Origin: a virus
Lineage: Duplodnaviria > Heunggongvirae > Uroviricota > Caudoviricetes
DNA length: 39,646 nt
IMG/VR virus record: IMGVR_UViG_3300011827_000030
Location: 1 to 39,646 of that record
Strand: one strand, 5' to 3'
Part shown: in pieces, positions 1,137 to 37,040 of the stretch
How positions within the stretch are numbered: position 1 is the first letter of the stretch
Layout of the letters: each line of letters starts with the position of its first letter
Notes under the pieces: model-generated
What the model was told of the DNA's origin: nothing
Seen by the model: only the letters and a program-made list of their open reading frames with translations
Database searches by the model: none
Program-made: the position numbers and the translations under genes

Positions 1137-2813
1137 CTAAGCAACATGCAGTTCATCGTTGGCGGAAGTTGCTGCTTTGCGCTCTTGCTCAATCGCCAGT
1201 GACTCTCTATATTCTTTCGCTTCCGCAAACATTGTCCATTGTGCGTTGATGTTCATATCTTCAATAACAGACTTAATTTCTTTAATATTTACGTTGAAAA
1301 ACTCTTTTCGTGAGTTAATTTTATTGACCTGTTTTTCGTTGAAGACTTTATGCAGATGATTTTCTAATGATGGTGCATCATCACTATAAATCATCGCATG
1401 AACATCGAACGAAAAAGGAACACTAGCATCACCGAGTTCACGAACACGATCAAGTGGTTCAAGGCGGCGTGTCATTCCAATTTTATATACATCTTCGCCA
1501 AATGAGCCAATATTACTAATTATATAAACGTGGCCTGATCTAGTTTGTTGAGCCATAGAAATAGCTCGTTGGTTTTTAGCTTCAGCTTCTTCATATTTTA
1601 ACTGTAGTTCAGCTATTTTTTGCTCTAAAGCTAAGCGTTGTTCTTCATTTGCAAGCATAAGCTCTTTTGTTGCTTTATTTATAGCTTGCTGAATAGCTTT
1701 CTCTTCTTTTTCAGCTTCTTTTATCGCTTTTTCATACTCCCTACGAGCTCTTTCCTCTTCACGAAGTTGTTCTTTAATCCTTCTTTGCTCTTCTTTTTCT
1801 TCGAGCATAATTTCATTAACTGCAACTCCCCATTTTAGCTCGTTGAGTCGAGCTTGAAGATAGATGTCACTTATTTTTGCGGACCTAAAGGCAGAACCAT
1901 TGTAATTTACAAGTTGAAACGCATCTTTTATCTCTTGGGAAAGTTTTCCAAAATTGTTGTGTTTGACTTTTGATAAAATACTGTCAACTCTTCCATTGAA
2001 GGCATCTAAAACAAAGTTGATAGCAGTATTACGCCTGTTTTGTTCAACATAATCACACGAAGCAGCTTTATTAGTTTTTATTAATAATTTTGTTAACTCC
2101 CTGGCTTTTTGTAATTCCTTACCTGCATCTGTAAACTCATAATTTTCTGCCAATTCATCGAGAACGCTACGGTTAGGGATGATCCATTCATCACCATAAC
2201 CTTCAATTTTATTTTTCATTGATTTGGCAACTGCTTCATATTTTTCTGCAAACTCTTTAGCTTCATATGCTGAACCAGCAATCTCTTTTGCTCTTTCTTC
2301 TGCATCGGAAATAATTTTCACTGCATTGTCATTAGCATTTGAGATCAGCTCATTTGCTTTACTATTGGCATTATCAAGACGTTCTTTAGCTTTCAGGCGT
2401 GCATCGCGAGCGTCTTTAGTAATTGCTATAGCTTCGCTATTAGCGTTGCTTATTTTTATCTGAGCTTGATAATTTGCTTCGTTTACTGTCTTAGCAGCCT
2501 TTATTTGGGCTTCTTCTATTTTTTGCCTGGCTATTGAGTCTGCATTTTTTATCTTATTCTCTGCTTCCATCACTGCGCTGTGCAATTCTACGTATTGCCA
2601 TAATGGCGCAGCTCGTCCTTCAAGCTCTGATAGATCTCGTACAGTCTGTGCTAATTCTTCTTGATTTTCTTTCAGTTGGTTGGAAAGGGCTATGTTGTTA
2701 GCTGTCAAGGTATTTATAGCCGCTTTATGTTTTTTGCTTTGCTTAAATAATATTACAGCTAGAATGGGGGCGAGAAATGCTAATAAGAATATAACGATGG
2801 AAAATGAATTCAT
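1137..2813 (-). CDS. Cargo protein: N-terminal transmembrane helix, long coiled coil, C-terminal T5orf172 (GIY-YIG-like) domain; candidate defence or lysogenic-conversion gene
   Basis: 558 aa; hydrophobic N-terminus SFSIVIFLLAFLAPILAVILF; K/E/A/Q-rich heptad-like stretches; C-terminal GHVYIISNIGSFGEDVYKIGMTRRLEPLDRVRELGDASVPFSFDVHAMIYSDDAPSLENHLHKVF...EFFNV matches the recalled T5orf172/DUF4041 pattern; gene is AT-rich relative to the phage backbone; RBS AAGGA precedes the ATG. Confidence 0.75.
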   Translation of the reverse strand: MNSFSIVIFLLAFLAPILAVILFKQSKKHKAAINTLTANNIALSNQLKENQEELAQTVRDLSELEGRAAPLWQYVELHSAVMEAENKIKNADSIARQKIEEAQIKAAKTVNEANYQAQIKISNANSEAIAITKDARDARLKAKERLDNANSKANELISNANDNAVKIISDAEERAKEIAGSAYEAKEFAEKYEAVAKSMKNKIEGYGDEWIIPNRSVLDELAENYEFTDAGKELQKARELTKLLIKTNKAASCDYVEQNRRNTAINFVLDAFNGRVDSILSKVKHNNFGKLSQEIKDAFQLVNYNGSAFRSAKISDIYLQARLNELKWGVAVNEIMLEEKEEQRRIKEQLREEERARREYEKAIKEAEKEEKAIQQAINKATKELMLANEEQRLALEQKIAELQLKYEEAEAKNQRAISMAQQTRSGHVYIISNIGSFGEDVYKIGMTRRLEPLDRVRELGDASVPFSFDVHAMIYSDDAPSLENHLHKVFNEKQVNKINSRKEFFNVNIKEIKSVIEDMNINAQWTMFAEAKEYRESLAIEQERKAATSANDELHVA

Positions 2814-9180: not shown

Positions 9181-9624
9181 GAAATGTTGCCCCCAGGAGG
9201 ATTCATTCTAATGGGGGCTAGTTTGGGCAACGAGTGAAACGAGGCGTAAGGTGGGTAATCATTTTGATAAGTGATCGCCCACTTTGTGCCAAAAGCGGAC
9301 ATCGCAGATATGACAATATGTTAGTCAACCGCGATTAGATCAGTCAGTTGGAGATGGGGGGAAGTTACAAAAACTTGTCGTCCGCCATCTCCGACTACGG
9401 GTATTCTTAACTGTACATGCTCTTTCAATCGATGATTTTTGAGTAAGTGACTAACCTATTGTTTTGATAGTAATTAAACGTATAAACGTGCGGAGTTAAT
9501 TTGAAAGTTATGTGTCTATGTTTGACAAGCAAAATTTTAAAGATTGGTTTTATCCACAGGTAATTTATGCTATTAATAGCCTCAAGCCCTGTAATTATTT
9601 TTATTTAAATGGATAAATTTGAAA

Positions 9625-11745
9625 ATGAGTACATATCATAATGATCAGCCAATACTAGGTGGTCAAAATGACCCCGATTTATTAAACAGGCTCGATTTTG
9701 CAAATCACTTGGCAAATATTCTACTATTAAATCACAATGATGATTGCCTTACTGTATCTATAGAGGCAGAGTGGGGATATGGTAAAACGTCAGTGATAAA
9801 TCTTATAAAAGGTGCTTTGAATGAAAAGGAGTTCTTACCAATAATAATAGAATATAATCCATGGCTGGCCGGTCAACCTGAATCCTTGATTCAGGATTTT
9901 TTATTACAGTTCTCTTCACAACTAAATATTAAAGACAATTCAAAAGCTGCTTTGGAAGCTTCAAAAGAATTAATTGCATACTCCAATCTCTTCAGTGTAG
10001 CAAAACTTATTCCAGGGACAGAACCTTGGGCATCTATCATAGAAAAAGTCCTCTCTAATTTTGGGAGTGCTACTAAAAAGATTGCTGAATTAAAAAAACT
10101 GGATCTTTTAGGTAGAAAAAAACAAGTAGAGAAGGCAATAAAAAAAATAAAAAATCCTATTGTGGTAATAATTGATGATTTTGATCGATTGACTCCTACA
10201 GAAACTTTTCAAGTTTTACGATTGGTTAAAGCAGTTGCAGATTTCTCAGGAACTTCTTTTTTACTTGCATTTGATCCTAATTATTTGATTTCTGTGCTTG
10301 ATAAAAATAATATCGTCAATTCTTCGGAGTATCTTAATAAAATTGTTCAACTTCGAGTCCCACTTCCTGTAATCTCAGAAAGGGGTATGAATGAACTTGC
10401 AAATGCAGAACTGGAAAAGATAGCTAATAAATCTTTAACTGACAGATTCGAAAGTGATCAAGAAAGACTAAGCTGGATTTATCATAATTATTTTAAAAAA
10501 CTAATTAAGAATCCGAGAGAGTTAAAAAGATTTTTTAACCATTTGAGATTCGTTTTAGAGCAAATTGAAGGGCAGGTATGTTTTTCTGATCTCTTTGCTT
10601 TATCTCTGGTTGCCACTAAATCGAGTTTGGTATACGAGCATATTAAAAGCACACCAGAGGCATATATAGGGAAGAGATTCACTAATGATGGCCTTTTGAT
10701 GGATAAACCTCAAGATATTGTGGATAGATTTAGTGATGAGCGAAATAAGAAACTGAGTAATTTTTCTGATCAAGAGCGTTCAGTGATGCAGGAACTCTTA
10801 GGAGATATTTTCCCACTTCTACAGTCAAGCGGGTATTCTCATTATGGGGTTTCTGATCCCGATACAGCAGGAAGGGTTTCTGCACCACAAAGGCTTCATA
10901 TTGCGTTTCATTATAAAACTCCAGCAGGGTATATTTCTGATCATGATATTATCAGTTTCATTAATGGAGATGTTAAAAGAAACGAATTTCTAAGAGATGT
11001 GCTCTCGCAAAATGCAGAAGAAAGATTTTTTGAAATGATGAATAATTATTCGAGTTATTGTAAGGATAATAGTTTTGAAATATTAACGTGTATTTATGAT
11101 ACTTTTCTGTTTTCTCAAGAATTGAAATCCTCATTGGAAAGAAACTATGGTTTTTTGACAAAAGATCTTTATAGAAGGATGAATTGGCTCACTAATAAGG
11201 TAATATCTGAAAGTGATGATAAATATGGGTTAATAAAGGGGGTTGTAGGTAGGCATGAGAATGCGCCACTTGGTGCAGACGTATTATGCCAAGCTCGTAA
11301 ACAGATTCAAAATGGATGGAATGACAAAATATGGGTTAGTATTGAAGAATTGGCTGAACTTGAAGGTATCTTTCAACAGGTGGCTATTAAAGTTTTAAGT
11401 GATAAAATATATTTTGATTATCATCTTGAATCTCATATATTTTTCGAATTAAAGAGAGTTTCATCTCAATTTACATCAGAGTTTATTGCTTCTGTATTAT
11501 CAAGTGATGGCCTGATTAGGATGTGTGAGATTATTGGTGAAACAGGTAGTGATTCAACAAATGGCCCTTTTTTTAAGTTTGATGAAATTTACTTCGGGGA
11601 AATACTTGATGTGAATGAACTTCGAAATAAAGCGAAAAATTTAGATTTTTCAATTTATCCCACACGCATTCAAGCTGTACTTAAGAGTATTCTGGATGGA
11701 CAAAAATATTATTTGAGAGATGCAACTGTTGGTGAAGATTGGTAA
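9625..11745 (+). CDS. KAP-family P-loop NTPase (cargo, candidate defence gene)
   Basis: 706 aa from ATG 9625; Walker A EAEWGYGKTS (9766-9792) and Walker B hhhhDDFDR (IVVIIDDFDRLTPTE) with a long helical C-terminal region, the KAP NTPase signature; gene is AT-rich; no obvious TM helices. Confidence 0.8.
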   Translation: MSTYHNDQPILGGQNDPDLLNRLDFANHLANILLLNHNDDCLTVSIEAEWGYGKTSVINLIKGALNEKEFLPIIIEYNPWLAGQPESLIQDFLLQFSSQLNIKDNSKAALEASKELIAYSNLFSVAKLIPGTEPWASIIEKVLSNFGSATKKIAELKKLDLLGRKKQVEKAIKKIKNPIVVIIDDFDRLTPTETFQVLRLVKAVADFSGTSFLLAFDPNYLISVLDKNNIVNSSEYLNKIVQLRVPLPVISERGMNELANAELEKIANKSLTDRFESDQERLSWIYHNYFKKLIKNPRELKRFFNHLRFVLEQIEGQVCFSDLFALSLVATKSSLVYEHIKSTPEAYIGKRFTNDGLLMDKPQDIVDRFSDERNKKLSNFSDQERSVMQELLGDIFPLLQSSGYSHYGVSDPDTAGRVSAPQRLHIAFHYKTPAGYISDHDIISFINGDVKRNEFLRDVLSQNAEERFFEMMNNYSSYCKDNSFEILTCIYDTFLFSQELKSSLERNYGFLTKDLYRRMNWLTNKVISESDDKYGLIKGVVGRHENAPLGADVLCQARKQIQNGWNDKIWVSIEELAELEGIFQQVAIKVLSDKIYFDYHLESHIFFELKRVSSQFTSEFIASVLSSDGLIRMCEIIGETGSDSTNGPFFKFDEIYFGEILDVNELRNKAKNLDFSIYPTRIQAVLKSILDGQKYYLRDATVGEDW

Positions 11746-12341: not shown

Positions 12342-14678
12342 ATGATTGAAGAGGTAGTTATTGACAAGGTAGGCTCATATAATGGCCCTACGCAGCTTTT
12401 ACATGGACTTTCTAAATTTAACTATTTATATGGAGCTAATGGTGCAGGTAAAACAACTATAAGTAAAATTATTAATGACCCTGAACAATATCCAACATGT
12501 CCGATTAAATGGAAAAATAATATATCTTTAATAAGCTACGTATATAATAAAGATTTTGTTGAAAGAAATTTTAGTCAAGATAAAATTAAAGGTGTATTTA
12601 CCCTTGGTAGCGATCTTAAGGAGGATGAAGAGAAACTAATATCTCTTAAAGAAGAAAAAAATAAGCTAATGGAATCTATTATAGCAAAGGAAAAGTTAAT
12701 AGATGGTGGTGATAATGAATTAGGCGTTATTAAAAAAATCGAAGACCATGAAAAATCTTTTAAAGATTCATGTTGGAAGCAAAAAGTAAAACATGACAAT
12801 GTGTTCTCAAAGGCTTTTGAGGGATTAAGGAATAGTAGTGAAAAATTTAAAGCCAGAGTGTTGGCTGAGTATGAAAATAATACATCAGAAGTTTGCTCAA
12901 TAGCAGAGTTAATTGAGAAAGCAAAAATTGTTTTTTCTACTGAATTGACATCACATGTATCAATTACAATTCCATCCTTCAATGGGATAGATGATATTTT
13001 GAGTAGGGAAGTTTGGAGTGAGCGCATCCTAGGGAAAAAAGACGTTAGTGTTTCAGACTTAATTACAATGCTCAATAACAGTGATTGGGTTAAGGAGGGT
13101 TTAACATATTTCAGTAAATCTAATCCCAAGTGCCCATTCTGCCAGCAGGATGTAAATGATAATATATTTGATAATCTTTCATCATATTTTGATAAAACAT
13201 ATGAGTTAAAAAAAAGAGAAATCGATGCATTGGTTTTACAATATGAATATCAACTTAATAATATCTTGAAGGCGATAGATGATATAAGGGCGATTAAATC
13301 TCCATTCATAAATTATGAAGTGTTTGAGGATAAGGCTAAGATAGTATTATCTGAATTAAACAAGAATTTTGAATTGGCAAAAAATAAACGCAATTTTTTA
13401 AGTGAATCAGTTCATTTTAGTGACTTAAGTGAAGTTGTTGATGATTTTATTTCTTTTTTGAATGATTCAAATCTATTGATAGATAATAATAACAAAATAC
13501 ATAGTAATAGAAAGGTAGAGGCTAGTAATCTTTCTAAGCAGATATGGGCATATATCGTAAAGGTGGAGTTAAAGTCTGAAATAACTTCTTACCGTAGCAA
13601 ATCTGATAAATTTAATAGGACGTTACAAGGACTTAAATCTGGGATAGAAGAAGACAAAAAGAAGTTAATGTTAAATACTTCGGCTATTGAGGCAATTGAG
13701 TCTAATAAAACCAGTACTCTTCCAACTATTACAAAAATTAACAAGATTCTGGACTCTTATGGCTTCAAAAATTTTTACTTAAAACCCTCCGAAGATAAAA
13801 AGCATTATATGATAGTGAGAGATAGTGGAGATAATGCTCGTACAACCCTTAGTGAGGGAGAAAAGACATTTATCACTTTTTTGTACTTTTATAGCCTTGT
13901 TAGAGGGAGTGATAATGCATCAGGTGTTTTAGATGATCGTGTTGTAGTATTTGATGATCCAATTTCAAGTTTAGATAGTGATATTCTGTTTATTGTAAGT
14001 TCGTTGATTAAAGATTTAATGGAGGATGTTCGTAAGGATGAAGGAAATATTAAGCAAATTATATTCCTTACTCATAATATTTATTTTCATAAAGAGTTGA
14101 CTTTTAATACCAAAAGATCCGGTAATCAAGCAATGAAAGAGGAGACTTTTTGGATTGTAAGGAAAAAAGGGAAGGTTTCATATCTTGAAAAGTGCGAATC
14201 AAACCCAATAAAAACGTCTTATGATTTGCTCTGGTGCGAATTGAGAAGAACAGACATTAATAATAATACTATACAAAATACAATGCGAAGGATTTTGGAG
14301 AATTACTTTAAGATATTAGGTGGGATGGATATTAGGAAGCTTGAGTGTCATTTTTATGGTGATGAAAAAATCATATTTAAATCTTTAGTGTCATGGATTA
14401 ATGATGGTTCCCATTTTGCAGGTGATGATCTTTATATGAATTTAGATACGGAGTCTGTGCAAAAATATTTAATTGTTTTTCAGAAGATATTTGAATGTAG
14501 TGAGCATACTGCCCATTACAAAATGATGATGGGTGAGTTTTATAAACCGTTAAATGAGTCACTTCATCTACAAGATGAGTTTGATATAGATGATAGTGCG
14601 AATGATGAGTATGCTTCGTCAAAAATTGAGATAAAAGATGGAATAAACACATCTCTACATAGCAACACATATTTGTAA
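12342..14678 (+). CDS. RloC-like ABC/SMC-type ATPase with coiled-coil insert, CxxC zinc hook and PrrC-like C-terminal putative nuclease (cargo, candidate defence gene)
   Basis: 778 aa; Walker A GANGAGKTT (12432-12458); CPFC at 13131-13142 near the middle of the predicted coiled coil; signature-like LSEGEKT, Walker B VVVFDDP, H-loop FLTHN; C-terminal region contains RRILE and IRKLECH (14334-14351); RBS AGAGG; AT-rich. Confidence 0.75.
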   Translation: MIEEVVIDKVGSYNGPTQLLHGLSKFNYLYGANGAGKTTISKIINDPEQYPTCPIKWKNNISLISYVYNKDFVERNFSQDKIKGVFTLGSDLKEDEEKLISLKEEKNKLMESIIAKEKLIDGGDNELGVIKKIEDHEKSFKDSCWKQKVKHDNVFSKAFEGLRNSSEKFKARVLAEYENNTSEVCSIAELIEKAKIVFSTELTSHVSITIPSFNGIDDILSREVWSERILGKKDVSVSDLITMLNNSDWVKEGLTYFSKSNPKCPFCQQDVNDNIFDNLSSYFDKTYELKKREIDALVLQYEYQLNNILKAIDDIRAIKSPFINYEVFEDKAKIVLSELNKNFELAKNKRNFLSESVHFSDLSEVVDDFISFLNDSNLLIDNNNKIHSNRKVEASNLSKQIWAYIVKVELKSEITSYRSKSDKFNRTLQGLKSGIEEDKKKLMLNTSAIEAIESNKTSTLPTITKINKILDSYGFKNFYLKPSEDKKHYMIVRDSGDNARTTLSEGEKTFITFLYFYSLVRGSDNASGVLDDRVVVFDDPISSLDSDILFIVSSLIKDLMEDVRKDEGNIKQIIFLTHNIYFHKELTFNTKRSGNQAMKEETFWIVRKKGKVSYLEKCESNPIKTSYDLLWCELRRTDINNNTIQNTMRRILENYFKILGGMDIRKLECHFYGDEKIIFKSLVSWINDGSHFAGDDLYMNLDTESVQKYLIVFQKIFECSEHTAHYKMMMGEFYKPLNESLHLQDEFDIDDSANDEYASSKIEIKDGINTSLHSNTYL

Positions 14679-23118: not shown

Positions 23119-24870
23119 CTATTGGTTGAATATAAAGCTGATAATATTTTCAGGAGTGAGCTCTATGTTTTTTTTATTAAGTTTTTGAATGTACATTTTA
23201 TATTTCATTTCAACGTTTCGGAAGCCTTGCGCAACAGAAAGTATTTCTACAGGATGAGATGAAAGCTTTATTAAGGAGTTAATGACTGCATCTAGGTAGA
23301 TGTGAGCATGTTCAACTAAAACATTTGTTTTTGATGGGGTTTTTCCAGTGTGAACTATCAAGTTTCTAGTTCTATATATTCTCCTAATTTGCCAGTTGAT
23401 TCTTTCTGCATGATTTTTAAGTGCCTGATACATAGTATCAGTTGAGGAAATTAAATTGCTAATATATTCAAATCTCTCTTTCAATAACGGAAATTGTGAG
23501 AGTTCTATCTTAAACTGATTGATGCTAGGGGCATGTTCTTGCGAAGCAACAAGAATTACAAATGATTTGGCTGCATCGCTATCTCCAATTAGTCTTAGAA
23601 GTGACATGGTTCGAGGATGATTCCATCGTTGTAAGTCTTTTATAAGATTCCTTACTAGGTCTTCAATATAATTCAGGTTTAAAAATGGTGTTAATGAATT
23701 AACGATATGTTCTATCGTGGATTGTTCTTCTTTTTTTGATTCGTCGGGGATGAGTGATTCAATAGCAATCCATAAATTTAAAAGCTGATTTTCTACAGCA
23801 TTTGTCTGTAGTGCCATTGAATGTAATTGTACACTTCTTATGAATTTATTGAAAGAATCCTTGCGCATTCTGAAATTATTCATGAATTGTTCGAGTCTTC
23901 TGCTTGCGTGTTCCTGAACCAGATCCTTGCAGCGGTGCATTGGGTTTATGCTGCTTCTTATATTGATTTTTTCACCATTTTCACTAACTACAATGTTCTC
24001 TGCAGACCATGATGCTTCTTGCTTATGATGATAGAGAGAAAGCAAAGTTGATGCGAGCTTTAAGTTTCTTTCAGCTACCCTTCTAGCCGTGAATGGATCA
24101 AGTGCTTTAACATGCTTAACTAAAATAGTTCGTTGTTCATGATTATCGAAGAAATCTGTTTCATTAATATTTTCGGGGGTTTCAAGAACAACCTCAATTT
24201 CTAATTGTGATAAGCATGGAGTAATATAACTAAAAGATTTGTCAGCATTGAAATAAACTGAATATTCTTGTGTCTCTGAGGGGATGTTCTCTAGGAATGT
24301 AATAATCTCTTCATTTGAACTGATCTCTCGTTCTCTTTGGAAGAAATGTTTTTTTAGACTTTCCATCAAATATTCTTGACTTAATCCTTTTGATATTAGG
24401 TGGGTAATCAACAGTCTTGTAAACTTTCGAATTTTATTTGGGTTGTATTCTGAAGTTATTGTAGAGCAAAGTTCACTGATGAGTTTGCTTTCATAATTAT
24501 CAACATTAAGTTGAACTCTCAGTAATTCAAGAGTTATTTTTAGATTTTTATTTCCTAACTGATTGTTTTGGAGTTGATCTAAAAATGAACCTAAAGGGTT
24601 TTTTAGAAGACTGATTGCGATGTCATCATTCTTAATATTTTTAGTTAATTCGTCAATGACGTGGGATATATGTGCGGGGCTTATGTTGCCTTTTTCTATA
24701 TCATCGATTGTTGATATTGCTTCTATACATAAACTTGGAGTGTTCATTATAGAAGGTTTATATGTACTATGGGTGTAATCAAAGAGAAGTTCCTCCATTA
24801 ACTCGGTGAAATAAATAAGCGCAGTGCATTGTTCAATATGATTCCAGTTGTGTAGTCTTCTAAATTTCAT
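23119..24870 (-). CDS. Cargo protein with C-terminal HEPN-like RNxxxH motif (candidate abortive-infection RNase), inserted between S and V
   Basis: 583 aa from ATG 24870 (RBS AAGG upstream; the listed ORF extends to a TTG at 24990); motif IRRIYRTRNLIVHTG encoded at 23350-23373; opposite strand to flanking tail genes; AT-rich. Confidence 0.7.
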   Translation of the reverse strand: MKFRRLHNWNHIEQCTALIYFTELMEELLFDYTHSTYKPSIMNTPSLCIEAISTIDDIEKGNISPAHISHVIDELTKNIKNDDIAISLLKNPLGSFLDQLQNNQLGNKNLKITLELLRVQLNVDNYESKLISELCSTITSEYNPNKIRKFTRLLITHLISKGLSQEYLMESLKKHFFQREREISSNEEIITFLENIPSETQEYSVYFNADKSFSYITPCLSQLEIEVVLETPENINETDFFDNHEQRTILVKHVKALDPFTARRVAERNLKLASTLLSLYHHKQEASWSAENIVVSENGEKINIRSSINPMHRCKDLVQEHASRRLEQFMNNFRMRKDSFNKFIRSVQLHSMALQTNAVENQLLNLWIAIESLIPDESKKEEQSTIEHIVNSLTPFLNLNYIEDLVRNLIKDLQRWNHPRTMSLLRLIGDSDAAKSFVILVASQEHAPSINQFKIELSQFPLLKERFEYISNLISSTDTMYQALKNHAERINWQIRRIYRTRNLIVHTGKTPSKTNVLVEHAHIYLDAVINSLIKLSSHPVEILSVAQGFRNVEMKYKMYIQKLNKKNIELTPENIISFIFNQ

Positions 24871-24914
24871 ATTAATACCTTGTTTTGTGAAGCTTGAATT
24901 TACCTTTAGCGCAT

Positions 24915-24932
24915 TGTTTGTTGCTTCATACA
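24915..24932. promoter_or_regulatory. Late-activator (Ogr) site TGT-N12-ACA upstream of V
   Basis: TGTttgttgcttcatACA, part of the longer palindrome tgtttgttgcttcatacaaaca, in the 108-bp gap between the cargo gene start and V. Confidence 0.5.
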
Positions 24933-24978
24933 AACATGGTTTGTTTGTGATCTCAAGTGTTTGATTAAGAATTTGAGA

Positions 24979-25557
24979 ATGAACGTACAACTCACGGAAA
25001 TCATGCGCCTTATCACCAATCTGATCCGCACAGGGGTAGTCACCGAAGTGGACCGGGAAAACTGGCTTTGCAGGGTGAAAACGGGCGAGCTTGAAACCAA
25101 CTGGATCAGCTGGCTGACGCTACGTGCCGGAAATGCCCGGACATGGTGGCGACCATCGGAAGGTGAGCAGGTGGTGCTGCTGAGTCTGGGCGGCAATCTG
25201 GAAACAGCCTTTGCGCTGCCCGCCATCTATTCGAATCAGTTTGCACCGCCGTCGACGTCGGCGGACGCCTGCGTGACAGAACATCCTGACGGTGGCTGGT
25301 TTGAATATGAACCCGCCACCGGGCGCTGGTATGTCAGGGGCATCAAATCAATGGTCATTGAGGCCGCTGATAACATCACCATGAAAACCAGTGAGTTTGT
25401 ACTGGAGGCTGACCGCACGCGCATTAACAGCGAAGTGGTGATCAATGGTGGCGTTACCCAGGGCGGCGGAGCGATGAGTTCTAACGGGATTGTGGTTGAT
25501 GCACATCAGCATACTGGCGTCCTGAAAGGCGGCGACACAACCGGAGGCCCGGTATGA
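24979..25557 (+). CDS. V: Baseplate spike / assembly protein (P2 gpV-like)
   Basis: Contains IRTGVVTEVD...WWRPSEGEQVVLLSLGGNLETAFALPAIYS, resembling P2 V as recalled; start ambiguous between ATG 24979 and ATG 25003. Confidence 0.8.
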   Translation: MNVQLTEIMRLITNLIRTGVVTEVDRENWLCRVKTGELETNWISWLTLRAGNARTWWRPSEGEQVVLLSLGGNLETAFALPAIYSNQFAPPSTSADACVTEHPDGGWFEYEPATGRWYVRGIKSMVIEAADNITMKTSEFVLEADRTRINSEVVINGGVTQGGGAMSSNGIVVDAHQHTGVLKGGDTTGGPV

Positions 25558-26808: not shown

Positions 26809-27406
26809 TCTGCTGCCACCGGGTTCAACTTCACTGGAGCGCCGACTGGCGCAAACCTGTAGCGGGATTTCTGATTTGCAGGTGCCGCTGCGTGACTTGT
26901 GGAATCCGGCTACCTGTCCGGTCAGTTTCCTGCCTTATCTCGCCTGGGCGTTCTCTGTGGATCGCTGGGACGAGGGCTGGACAGAAAGCGTCAAGCGCCA
27001 GGTGGTGAAGGATGCTTTTTATATTCATCAGCATAAAGGGACCACCAGTGCCGTGCGGCGGGTGGTGGAGCCGTTCGGCTTTCTGATCCGCATTATTGAG
27101 TGGTGGCAGACCGGAGAAACACCCGGCACGTTTCGCCTGGATATCGGCGTGCAGGACCAGGGCATCACTGAAGATACCTATCAGGAACTTGAGAGGCTGA
27201 TAAGCGATGCCAAACCATGTAGCCGTCACATGATCGGCATGTCCATCAATCTACAGACCAGCGGCCCGTATTGGTTGGGGGCAGCCAGCTATCTTGGTGA
27301 AGAAATCACGATCTTTCCGTATATCAACGAAACAATTATTTCCGGCGGCACCGCGCATGAAGGCGGGGCGGTCCATGTTATTGACACAATGAGAGTGAAT
27401 CCATGA
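26801..27406 (+). CDS. I: Baseplate/tail protein (P2 gpI-like)
   Basis: 201 aa; RBS GGAGGAACGG; start overlaps the J stop. Confidence 0.8.
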   Translation: MNSLLPPGSTSLERRLAQTCSGISDLQVPLRDLWNPATCPVSFLPYLAWAFSVDRWDEGWTESVKRQVVKDAFYIHQHKGTTSAVRRVVEPFGFLIRIIEWWQTGETPGTFRLDIGVQDQGITEDTYQELERLISDAKPCSRHMIGMSINLQTSGPYWLGAASYLGEEITIFPYINETIISGGTAHEGGAVHVIDTMRVNP

Positions 27407-29154
27407 GCACAAAATTTTATACCCTGCTGACGGATATTGGCGCGGCGAAACTTGCCAGCGCCGCCGCGCTCGGTGTGCCTTTAAAAATTACCCATATGGC
27501 GGTCGGCGATGGCGGCGGAACATTACCAACGCCGGACGCAAAGCAGACAGCACTGGTAAATGAGAAACGCCGGGCTGCGCTGAATATGCTCTATATCGAC
27601 CCGCAGAACAGCAGCCAGATTATTGCTGAACAGGTGATCCCTGAAAACGAGGGCGGTTGGTGGATACGTGAAGTGGGCCTGTTTGATGAGTCCGGAGCAT
27701 TGATTGCCGTGGGCAACTGCCCGGAAAGCTATAAGCCGCAACTGGCTGAAGGCAGCGGGCGTACCCAGACCGTGCGTATGGTGTTGATTACCAGCAGCAC
27801 GGACAATATCACCCTGAAAATCGACCCTGCCGTAGTGCTGGCAACCCGCAAGTATGTGGATGACAAAATATCAGAGCACGAACAGTCACGACGTCACCCG
27901 GACGCCTCGCTGACCGCAAAAGGTTTTACTCAGTTAAGCAGTGCGACCAACAGTGAATCCGAAATACTGGCCGCAACACCGAAGGCTGTGAAGGCTGCAT
28001 ATGATCTTGCAGCAGGTAAAGCATCCGCCAGTCACACACACCCGTGGAATCAGATAACGGATGTGCCTGCAGCTTCACTGACGGTAAAAGGCACCGTGCA
28101 ACTCAGCAGCGCCACTAACAGCACGTCAGAAACGCAGGCTGCCACACCAAAGGCAGTGAAGGCGGCATATGACCTTGCAGCAGGTAAGGCACCTGTCAGT
28201 CACACGCACCCGTGGAGCCAGATAACGGATGTGCCTGCAGCTTCACTGACGGTAAAAGGTACCGTGCAACTCAGCAGCGCCACTAACAGCACGTCAGAAA
28301 CGCAGGCTGCCACACCAAAAGCCGTGAAGGCTGTATATGACCTTGCCAATGGAAAACAACCTGCCGACGCCACACTGACCGCACTGGCAGGCCTTGCCAC
28401 TGCGGCAGACAAACTACCGTATTTTACGGGGAATGATACAGCCAGCCTGACAACCCTGACTAATGTTGGACGGGATATTCTGGCTAAAACAAGCAAACAG
28501 GAGGTTATTCATTATCTTGGTTTGGGAGCTACAAACGGATACGTGGGACGCTTGGTGAATACCCGGGTTTTCACGTCATCAGGTACGTACACCCCGACGC
28601 CAGGAACAAAACGGATCAGGGTCACAATAACGGGCGGCGGTGGCGGAGGGGGCGGCTGCAAGGCTATATCCAATAATGAAACGTTTTTCGGTGCTGGCGG
28701 TGGGGCCGGTGGAACAATAATTTCAATAATGACCCCGACACAGAATAGTTATCCAGTCACTATCGGCGCAGGTGGGGCCGGTGGTGTTAGTGCAACGTAC
28801 GGCATCAATGGCGGTAATAGCTTATTCGCATCGTTAATTGCTCCTGGTGGCGCAGGCGGCGGAAAGTCAGGAGTCACAAACACAAACGGTGGTAACGGAG
28901 GTGTGCCGAGTACTGGCGATATAAACATCATTGGTGGATGTGGAGGCGACGGTCAGTCCGGAAATATCGGCGTCAGCGGTGAAGGCGGAACATCGTACTG
29001 GGGTGGCGGTGGACGCGCAGGCGCTGGCGGTGGTGTTAGCGGCAAGGCATATGGTTCAGGTGGCGGTGGTGCATACGATGCCGGTTATAGCGGAACCAGT
29101 ATGACGGGCGGGAAAGGCGCTGCAGGGATTTGTATTATCGAGGAGTTTGCATAA
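27403..29154 (+). CDS. H: Tail fibre protein (P2 gpH-like) with tandem fibre repeats and a glycine-rich C-terminal domain
   Basis: 583 aa; N-terminus MSTKFYTLLTDIGAAKLASAAALGVPLKITHMAVGDGGG typical of P2-type fibre attachment domains; internal 56-aa tandem repeats; C-terminal about 180 aa dominated by GGxGG runs. Confidence 0.9.
   Translation: MSTKFYTLLTDIGAAKLASAAALGVPLKITHMAVGDGGGTLPTPDAKQTALVNEKRRAALNMLYIDPQNSSQIIAEQVIPENEGGWWIREVGLFDESGALIAVGNCPESYKPQLAEGSGRTQTVRMVLITSSTDNITLKIDPAVVLATRKYVDDKISEHEQSRRHPDASLTAKGFTQLSSATNSESEILAATPKAVKAAYDLAAGKASASHTHPWNQITDVPAASLTVKGTVQLSSATNSTSETQAATPKAVKAAYDLAAGKAPVSHTHPWSQITDVPAASLTVKGTVQLSSATNSTSETQAATPKAVKAVYDLANGKQPADATLTALAGLATAADKLPYFTGNDTASLTTLTNVGRDILAKTSKQEVIHYLGLGATNGYVGRLVNTRVFTSSGTYTPTPGTKRIRVTITGGGGGGGGCKAISNNETFFGAGGGAGGTIISIMTPTQNSYPVTIGAGGAGGVSATYGINGGNSLFASLIAPGGAGGGKSGVTNTNGGNGGVPSTGDINIIGGCGGDGQSGNIGVSGEGGTSYWGGGGRAGAGGGVSGKAYGSGGGGAYDAGYSGTSMTGGKGAAGICIIEEFA
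27898..28368 (+). repeat. Tandem in-frame repeat of 168 bp, about 2.7 copies, inside tail fibre gene H
   Basis: Units starting at 28033 and 28201 are nearly identical at the DNA level (HTHPW[NS]QITDVPAASLTVKGTVQLSSATNSTSETQAATPKAVKA[AV]YDLA...); a diverged partial copy precedes them. Confidence 0.75.
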
Positions 29155-36843: not shown

Positions 36844-37040
36844 CGTTAAAAAACAGTGCTTCTAACATCATGATTTTAAACAGCTTAAATTTCAGGCAAC
36901 AAAAAACCCATCAACCTTGAACCGAAGTGGCGGGGGTGGTGGGCTCCCCAAAAAGGGGACATCAAAGAAAAGCAGTGGCATTACTTATGACTGATGCCCT
37001 GAGAAAAAGTTCTGCCTGTGACGGCTTTTTTCTCAAAAAA

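Follow-up and report, generated by a model that had tools for sequence, protein, structure and literature searches.

Does a tail-fibre gene that is built in part from tandem repeats change its length by whole repeat units, and can the unit count read from one assembly be trusted? The question is raised by the fibre gene of IMG/VR virus record IMGVR_UViG_3300011827_000030, whose 39,646 nucleotides are referred to here as the window. The gene encodes a 583-residue fibre of the type of gpH in phage P2, and an earlier note on this DNA had claimed that it contains near-identical 168-bp tandem repeats, that recombination could add or remove them without breaking the reading frame, and that they are likely hot spots for assembly. 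Taken as a whole, the best explanation, to which we assign a probability of roughly 85%, is a fibre shaft made of recombination-variable 168-bp units of the PF03406 family. By its sequence, the fibre segment is the shaft of a P2 gpH-type fibre in a P2-like Escherichia coli prophage.

Structure of the repeat array

An in-frame tandem repeat of 56 codons (168 bp) is present in the fibre gene. Tandem Repeats Finder (TRF) places it at 27969-28346 with a period of 168, 2.2 copies, 91% matches and a score of 637, and this is the only sizeable tandem array within the 39.6-kb window; a second repeat search agrees, giving one 168-nt family with a spacing of 168, and Pfam reports three PF03406 repeats. 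The units at 28033-28200 and 28201-28368 are identical at 148/168 nucleotides (88%) and 50/56 amino acids and lie in frame with the gene. The binomial probability of at least 148 matches in 168 is about 4e-65, and in codon-shuffled control genes (n = 20) the best 168-nt pair reached only 68-74/168. The description of these units as near-identical holds for their first 146 nt, which differ at eight sites (138/146), and is a little too strong for the whole unit, the last 22 nt being divergent. In the best register (27982-28149 against 28150-28317) identity rises to 157/168, and the mechanically delimited high-identity tract, 27969-28346 on the plus strand, amounts to 2.25 x 168 nt, with 192/210 identical positions between 27969-28178 and 28137-28346. 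The repeat peptide had been quoted correctly.

Comparison with longer alleles defines three kinds of unit, and the window holds one of each: a boundary, an internal and a terminal unit, with one PF03406 repeat per unit and an SHTHPW linker opening the second and third. The boundary unit (27865-28032), seen by the earlier note as a diverged partial copy, is identical to the next unit at 107/168 positions overall and at 54/64 over its last 64 nt; its head (..SRRHPDASLTAKGF..) is unique, it bears RxH where later units bear HxH, and its tail resembles internal tails. Internal units have the head HTHPW[NS]QITDVPAASLTVKGTVQLSSATNSTSETQ and the tail AATPKAVKAAYDLAAGKAPVS. The terminal unit has a head of the internal type and a unique tail. 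The internal unit of the window accordingly matches the terminal unit over its 5' 104 nt (100/104) and the boundary unit over its 3' 64 nt, so that the array is not, as had been supposed, two equivalent units and a relic. This internal unit (u1) is identical to U1, and the terminal unit (u2) to U4, the last unit, of the five-unit alleles L074 (E. coli W21) and L075 (CP034321.1). Internal units within alleles of four to six units are identical at 159-168/168 positions, and at 165-168/168 in alleles that share the flank sequence of the window.

Copy number among relatives and in the window

Fibres of the same architecture are 527, 583, 639, 695 or 751 aa long, which corresponds to two to six units of exactly 56 aa. 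Four gene sizes sit at the same locus in complete E. coli genomes: 1584 nt with two units (D3, D5), 1752 nt with three (HS in several assemblies, C51, 127, FREC5), 1920 nt with four (PS3Tanimalfeces2, ES2, OY754398) and 2088 nt with five (JNQH497, JNQH498, W21, Ec1115, MS 85-1 and others). The 120 best-scoring proteins of this architecture, a list ranked by score and biased to long arrays, are nearly all 639, 695 or 751 aa long with a period of exactly 56 aa, and include two variants of 626 and 694 aa. Eight groups with identical flanking protein sequence each hold at least two copy numbers. A census by whole-gene megablast missed the closest alleles, as pieces overlapping on the query were not joined, and the two flanks were therefore searched separately. 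A scan of one genome per species returned mostly fibres from other genera, in which one Pf2 unit occurs and the HxH linker does not; these were usable as an outgroup and uninformative on copy number. Other fibres have nt 207-1752 of the window gene in common with it, and their spans differ by multiples of 132 nt (1341, 1473, 1605 and 1869 nt), steps that may be 44-aa units.

The alleles most closely related to the window differ from it by exact units. The window gene equals the five-unit gene of CP034321.1 minus exactly 336 nt, in register, with no mismatch in 1500 nt upstream, in the remaining 1248 nt of the gene or in 1400 nt downstream (about 4.1 kb). The copy in W21 shows the same exact 336-nt difference within the gene and three mismatches in the flanks. 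In the finished genome D3, the two-unit gene equals a five-unit allele (L093) minus exactly 504 nt, with no other difference over about 4.4 kb. The two-unit allele of AH04 retains an internal-type tail and the head of the first internal unit, and therefore arose at a different breakpoint. The comparison with H genes of related prophages that had been proposed as a check thus returned whole-unit differences on otherwise identical sequence at the same locus, and the claim that units are gained and lost without breaking the frame is borne out by the 2-6-unit ladder, the eight flank groups and the exact 336-nt and 504-nt differences. Because the ladder stands on identical flanks and the in-register indels come with no flanking mismatches, these alleles support a copy number that changes recurrently, always by whole units, and faster than point substitutions accumulate. 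Shaft length, on this evidence, changes faster than any other part of the fibre.

The shaft of the P2 gpH-type fibre is built as an in-frame head-to-tail array of 168-bp units. In the proposed mechanism, whole units would be added or removed by unequal homologous recombination between adjacent units, or by slippage of replication from one to the next. Such events are feasible, since tracts of more than 100 nt are 94-100% identical in DNA from unit to unit, and whole-unit gain and loss would lead to relatives forming a ladder of 2, 3, 4, 5 and 6 units, on which the window shows 3. A change of this kind would keep the frame and spare both the N-terminus, which binds the baseplate, and the glycine-rich tip, which is presumed to bind the receptor.

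A structural duplication that is ancient and fixed, its number no longer changing, would account for the 12-36% by which the three units of the window differ at the DNA level, and for the three units found in several assemblies of the same strain, E. coli HS. It is contradicted by the 165-168/168 identity of internal units in same-flank alleles, and it is refuted, unless all those assemblies are wrong, by the identical-flank ladder and the exact indels with zero flanking substitutions, finished genomes included; we regard it as highly improbable. Programmed variation, by a diversity-generating retroelement, an invertase switch or phase variation at a slippery tract, is so improbable that we rejected it. 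A Gin-type invertase does adjoin the fibre genes in some relatives, such as Cartapus; in the window the tail-sheath gene comes immediately after the fibre and assembly genes, no invertase intervening, and neither an invertase nor a reverse transcriptase is annotated in the aligned W21 prophage. No inverted repeats were found within the fibre gene, TRF gave no tandem array of period below 9 nt anywhere in the window (inside the gene it found one weak 9-nt array, 28632-28655), and the change proceeds in steps of a whole 168-nt unit and not through targeted point changes. Rfam gave no match in or near the fibre gene.

The allele of the window is itself suspect. An artefact of assembly is a serious candidate, at slightly less than even odds: the true prophage would have five units (or four), and a short-read assembler would have taken the shortest path through two nested loops of the repeat graph. 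The array of the window corresponds to U0-U1-U4 of the five-unit U0-U1-U2-U3-U4, every base being identical. As reasoned from the sequences, the sites at which U1 differs from U2, and U3 from U4, all lie more than 200 nt away from the next informative site; the five-unit allele therefore contains every k-mer of the three-unit form, and three units are the shortest walk through the graph. The exact 583-aa protein occurs on at least 25 contigs, and the seven records listed are all draft whole-genome shotgun assemblies, with a longest contig of 1.02 Mb. The three complete E. coli genomes whose N- and C-terminal gene flanks are 100% identical (JNQH497, JNQH498 and W21) have five units, as does CP034321.1 with identical flanks. 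Blocks whose longest contig exceeds 1 Mb make up 4/27 for the three-unit allele and 9/13 for the five-unit allele (Fisher p = 0.0011), and the arrays U0-U1-U3-U4 and U0-U1-U2-U4 are seen too in drafts with this flank haplotype. Against an artefact, a true in-register deletion would yield exactly the same sequence, finished genomes with other haplotypes carry real two- and three-unit alleles (D3 and D5; HS, across several independent assemblies), seven independent draft assemblies yielded one and the same three-unit form, and the association with contiguity could reflect which clones received long-read sequencing. The count of three may thus be understated by assembly.

That the array is an assembly hot spot proved correct. 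Among protein-cluster representatives of array matches, the sequence breaks off within an array in 18 and begins within one in 14, and several contigs of about 1 kb consist of units alone. Three N-terminal fragments of the window's fibre type, which represent 66, 143 and 68 sequences, stop at the HTHPW linker; one of them was checked, and its contig ends within the array. Short-read assemblies are no trustworthy guide to the copy number of this gene, contigs commonly break in fibre genes of this type, and length differences of 168 bp between otherwise 'identical' prophages should not be taken to mean distinct phages. The earlier note did not mention the curated family to which the repeats belong, the conserved HxH motif of the linker, or the possibility that the count in the window is artefactual.

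Two observations concern annotation and contig ends at related loci. A second frequent break point is seen in hundreds of 'partial' fibres of the class with N-terminus MGNLNETEKWEEN..., which are cut downstream of the array around ..YLGLGEGSALPVGVPVPWP...; this segment may be shared or inverted between prophages. The RefSeq record of D3 marks the fibre-assembly gene (L001, 3144-3485) as an incomplete pseudogene. The DNA that follows the D3 fibre gene is identical to that of the relative L093 (3588-4001), where the full 137-aa gene is called, and the flag is an annotation inconsistency and not a real defect.

The PF03406 core and the HxH linker

PF03406 (Phage_fiber_2; Pf2 domain) is a repeat of side and tail fibres, including lambda Stf and prophage fibres (PMC3368898). 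The domain is that of lambda Stf, of StfR and of collagen-like fibre proteins of prophages. The whole protein of the window matches the family with E 5e-55 and 183.2 bits against a cut-off of 22, in three stretches, of which the best (aa 281-320) covers profile positions 1-40 of 42. The repeats lie in a tail-fibre protein with a P2-type N-terminus and a Tfa gene next to it, and homologues are annotated as tail fibres. Each unit has the core ..KGxVQLSSATNSTSExxAATPKAVKAAYDLA.., which is the sequence of the family, and the three stretches match the model end to end. The difference lies in length, the model spanning about 42 residues and the unit 56, with the extra residues forming the linker SHTHPWxQITxVPxA. 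From the second unit on, the linker is 12 residues longer and carries an invariant HxH (SHTHPW). The profile PF12789 (PTR) touches the linker faintly, at E 0.006, below its cut-off.

The HxH motif is strongly conserved in units of this length. HTHPW is present in 714/718 long units of the E. coli set, and among representatives at 50% identity HxH accompanies 53/53 cores spaced by 56 aa, 8/10 spaced by 53 aa and 0/91 spaced by 44-45 aa, the last class having no histidines. Among the same representatives, the residues around the histidines drift (HTHPW, HTHAW, HSHGE, HSHSA) while HxH persists. An HxH conserved along a fibre shaft is the pattern of the sites of the T4 gp37 and R-pyocin type. In T4 gp37 and the R1 and R2 pyocin fibres, the HxH motifs of three chains form a buried octahedral iron site of six histidines (PMC6116203; also PMC8174754), and Buth et al. 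proposed such sites as folding reference points and tuners of stiffness, with repeat-built fibres permitting adjustment of length (PMC6116203).

The window fibre is expected to be a homotrimeric receptor-binding protein, and by analogy the three HxH copies at each linker would form a six-histidine metal site, probably for iron, that would register and stiffen the three chains. The likeness to the HxH iron fibres (T4 gp37, R1/R2 pyocin and P2 gpV) is an HxH that recurs along the expected trimer while its neighbours drift; the window linker differs in that no similarity to the sequences of those proteins was seen, the metal role being assigned by analogy, and in placing the putative site inside a duplicating 56-aa unit. 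Because of this placement, the number of sites would scale with copy number, each long unit bringing one further HxH site and thus one metal clamp. The pyocin shaft rises about 93 Å per 70 residues (PMC6116203), and at a similar rise per residue the shaft would gain roughly 7 nm with every unit. Copy number would thereby tune the reach of the tip in steps of several nanometres.

A stronger form of this idea is that the array acts as a fast, reversible length switch, in which the turnover of whole HxH-clamped units outpaces the accumulation of point mutations, a prophage lineage goes on yielding virions whose fibres have two to six units, and selection acts on the reach of the glycine-rich tip through O-antigen or capsule layers that differ in thickness. 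We consider this doubtful. If true, it would make the array a contingency locus acting on fibre reach and not on receptor specificity.

Several points weigh against a recombination-variable shaft of metal-clamped units. Six-unit forms are found in draft assemblies alone, and part of the ladder comes from drafts, which can collapse repeats. Gain and loss of units are read from the comparison of alleles. Metal binding by the linker is proposed by analogy, and RxH alone is found both in the boundary unit and in the units that other genera carry as single copies, so that folding of a Pf2 unit does not require a full HxH. An AlphaFold2 monomer model of the array (from a 20-sequence alignment) was unusable, with a mean predicted local distance difference test score of 32 and a predicted template modelling score of 0.21, as might be expected because the native fibre should be an intertwined trimer. 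Any influence of copy number on host range or adsorption is hypothetical. Finally, a sequence search of the PDB with the whole fibre gave a single match, the Mu fibre, of which residues ~104-150 align on one Pf2 unit (E 5e-6). This fibre (S/gp49; 5yvq, 8ju3, 9ki1) differs in having a single unit, and the aligned stretch lacks the HxH linker. Its published cryo-EM model is confined to the N-terminus and its crystal structure to the C-terminal part, so the fold of the Pf2 unit may not be resolved.

The window fibre resembles the P2 gpH type (Peduoviridae) in its full-length PF12571, gene order and downstream Tfa; P2-type fibres of other genera usually have one Pf2 unit and lack the HxH linker, and the tip of the window fibre is of the glycine-rich PF21722 type. 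That P2, Mu, P1 and lambda share these fibre motifs was reported in the early 1990s. Our literature search found no description of copy-number variation in P2-type fibres, of a 168-bp ladder or of an HxH-linker class, and the variation in a paper on a 'fibre length haplotype' of tailocins is of a different kind from the unit-number ladder seen here. The feature is already known in kind, with the PF03406 family and the exact protein in databases, and is an ordinary length-variable shaft; the 168-bp ladder and the HxH-linker class are modest extensions of known principles. If length affects adsorption, whole-unit change would offer temperate phages a cheap adaptive route and provide a simple handle for engineering fibre reach.

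Module joint, gene neighbourhood and the rest of the window

The array also coincides with a boundary between fibre modules. The H genes of KP12, 4LV2017 and Cartapus match the window gene over nt 1-461/464 only, at 98-99.6%, and beyond codon 155 continue into an unrelated shaft, so that the homology stops at the codon before the array starts. Alleles of AH04, L3452210II and D7 keep the N-terminus, the array and the glycine-rich tip. The extra domain that D7 bears differs from that of the other two. Together, the homology stop at the array and the varied distal domains place the array at a recombination joint between anchor and tip modules. Near-identical units are found in fibres with unrelated N-termini (MGNLNETEKWEEN..., MTVKYYAILTNQG..., MNDVTVVTSV...), and other fibre classes have 3 to 12 copies or more, with tips that are unrelated too. 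Unit DNA is present in P2-like, lambdoid and large (~95-100 kb) Escherichia phages, and the gene has matches in 2218/5426 E. coli genomes, at up to seven places per genome.

These observations suggest that the conserved repeat DNA may have a second role at the module joint. They would also fit repeat DNA that serves chiefly as a shared homology patch for swapping tips and N-terminal anchors, with copy-number change as a by-product: the array begins exactly where the homology of the three H genes ends, alleles with the same array carry different distal parts, and near-identical units recur behind unrelated N-termini, in several phage types and at many places in E. coli genomes. Such a patch would be compatible with the shaft of recombination-variable units; as the chief explanation it leaves tandem addition and the conservation of HxH unaccounted for, and the DNA of different fibre classes is often just 70-85% identical, a poor basis for RecA-type exchange. 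We judge it possible and on balance unlikely.

In the region from 1501 to the gene end in AH04 (L002), L3452210II (L003) and D7 (L004), an extra domain of ~130-170 aa lies between array and tip. In L3452210II, 44-aa units without HxH replace the 56-aa units.

The positions of the features are collected in Table 1. The open reading frame (ORF) of the fibre carries full-length PF12571 (aa 1-150, profile positions 1-150 of 150, E 3e-65, 219 bits), the three PF03406 repeats and PF21722 Gly_rich_2 (aa 392-580, E 4e-13), in addition to the sub-threshold PF12789. The gene order is J, I, fibre, Tfa and sheath, with PF04865 Baseplate_J and PF09684 Tail_P2_I upstream of the fibre and PF02413 downstream. 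Both the full-length PF12571 and this order are those of a P2 gpH-type gene, and they agree with the earlier assignment of the repeats to a fibre. The ATG of the chaperone gene overlaps the fibre stop codon, and a 137-aa gene is also called in the identical DNA of relatives. The E. coli W21 prophage is homologous to most of the window at 96-99% identity and is annotated by PGAP as 186/P2-like, with an insertion adjoining ybjL. NCBI already lists the identical 583-aa protein, under the title 'MULTISPECIES: phage tail protein [Enterobacteriaceae]'.

Table 1. Positions of the tail-fibre gene, its modules and repeat units, and the adjoining chaperone gene in the window
Feature	Position	Strand	Basis or description
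Tail-fibre gene, P2 gpH type, 583 aa	27403..29154	+	ORF, Pfam and PHROGs tail-fibre families
N-terminal baseplate-attachment module	27403..27864	+	PF12571; ends at mosaic joint, codon 154/155 (...RKYVDDK)
Unit u0, boundary unit	27865..28032	+	Unique head (KISEHEQSRRHPDASLTAKGFTQLSSATNSESEIL) and shared tail (AATPKAVKAAYDLAAGKASAS); first PF03406 stretch
Unit u1, sole true internal unit	28033..28200	+	HTHPWN linker, Pf2 core, internal-type tail (..AAGKAPVS)
First HxH, His211-Thr-His213, putative metal-binding site of fibre trimer	28033..28041	+	Sequence
Interval for placing the two-unit (336-nt) difference	28093..28259	+	168 equivalent positions, no other mismatch
Unit u2, terminal unit	28201..28368	+	HTHPWS linker, Pf2 core, unique tail (..KAVYDLANGKQPAD)
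Second HxH, His267-Thr-His269, putative metal-binding site	28201..28209	+	Sequence
Post-array segment (ADATLTALAGLATAADKLPYFTG...), array-to-tip connector	28369..28575	+	Common to all alleles and other fibre classes
Glycine-rich C-terminal domain, presumed receptor-binding tip	28576..29142	+	PF21722 Gly_rich_2
Tail-fibre assembly chaperone gene, 137 aa	29154..29567	+	PF02413 Caudo_TAP, phrog_188

The glycine-rich tip, with runs such as GGGGGGGGC, has no confident solved relative; its best match, the tail fibre of the myocyanophage Pam3 (7yfw/7ypx), is end-to-end and weak (E 0.27). The same tip is present in Serratia fibres (L025, L040), behind a single Pf2 unit. On the minus strand, a 98-aa ORF at 28200-28496 lies over the repeat and has weak matches to two PHROG families of unknown function. 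We do not take it for a real gene, these matches being weak and no convincing promoter having been found for it; we treat it as a by-product of the conserved repeat DNA, in which some phage annotations have probably placed a gene on the opposite strand by mistake.

Elsewhere in the window, several genes resemble defence cargo. A 558-aa AT-rich gene at 1140-2813 (minus strand), between the integrase and the CI repressor, has a PADLOC match to PD-Lambda-1 (E 1e-119) and T5orf172/MUG113 and DUF4041 domains, and is probably a prophage-borne anti-phage gene; the segment is missing from the otherwise similar W21 prophage. Between the replication and portal genes, two large plus-strand genes, at 9619-11742 and 12342-14675, lie in a low-GC island (~31-39% against ~55% in the phage body). 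One encodes a KAP-family P-loop NTPase resembling PifA (E 6e-64) and the other an AAA_13 ATPase that matches the candidate defence family PDC-S06 (E 2e-266), and the island looks like the defence cargo of a P2 'hotspot'. A 623-aa ORF with 33% GC lies on the opposite strand at 23122-24990, between the tail-completion genes and baseplate gene V; it has no Pfam match and a weak PADLOC match to ApeA (E 2e-12), and is annotated as hypothetical in W21. The only Rfam match in the window is the small RNA RybB (91 bits) at 36898-36976 on the minus strand, just outside the ogr end and adjoining ybjL, which indicates that the prophage sits beside or in the rybB region.

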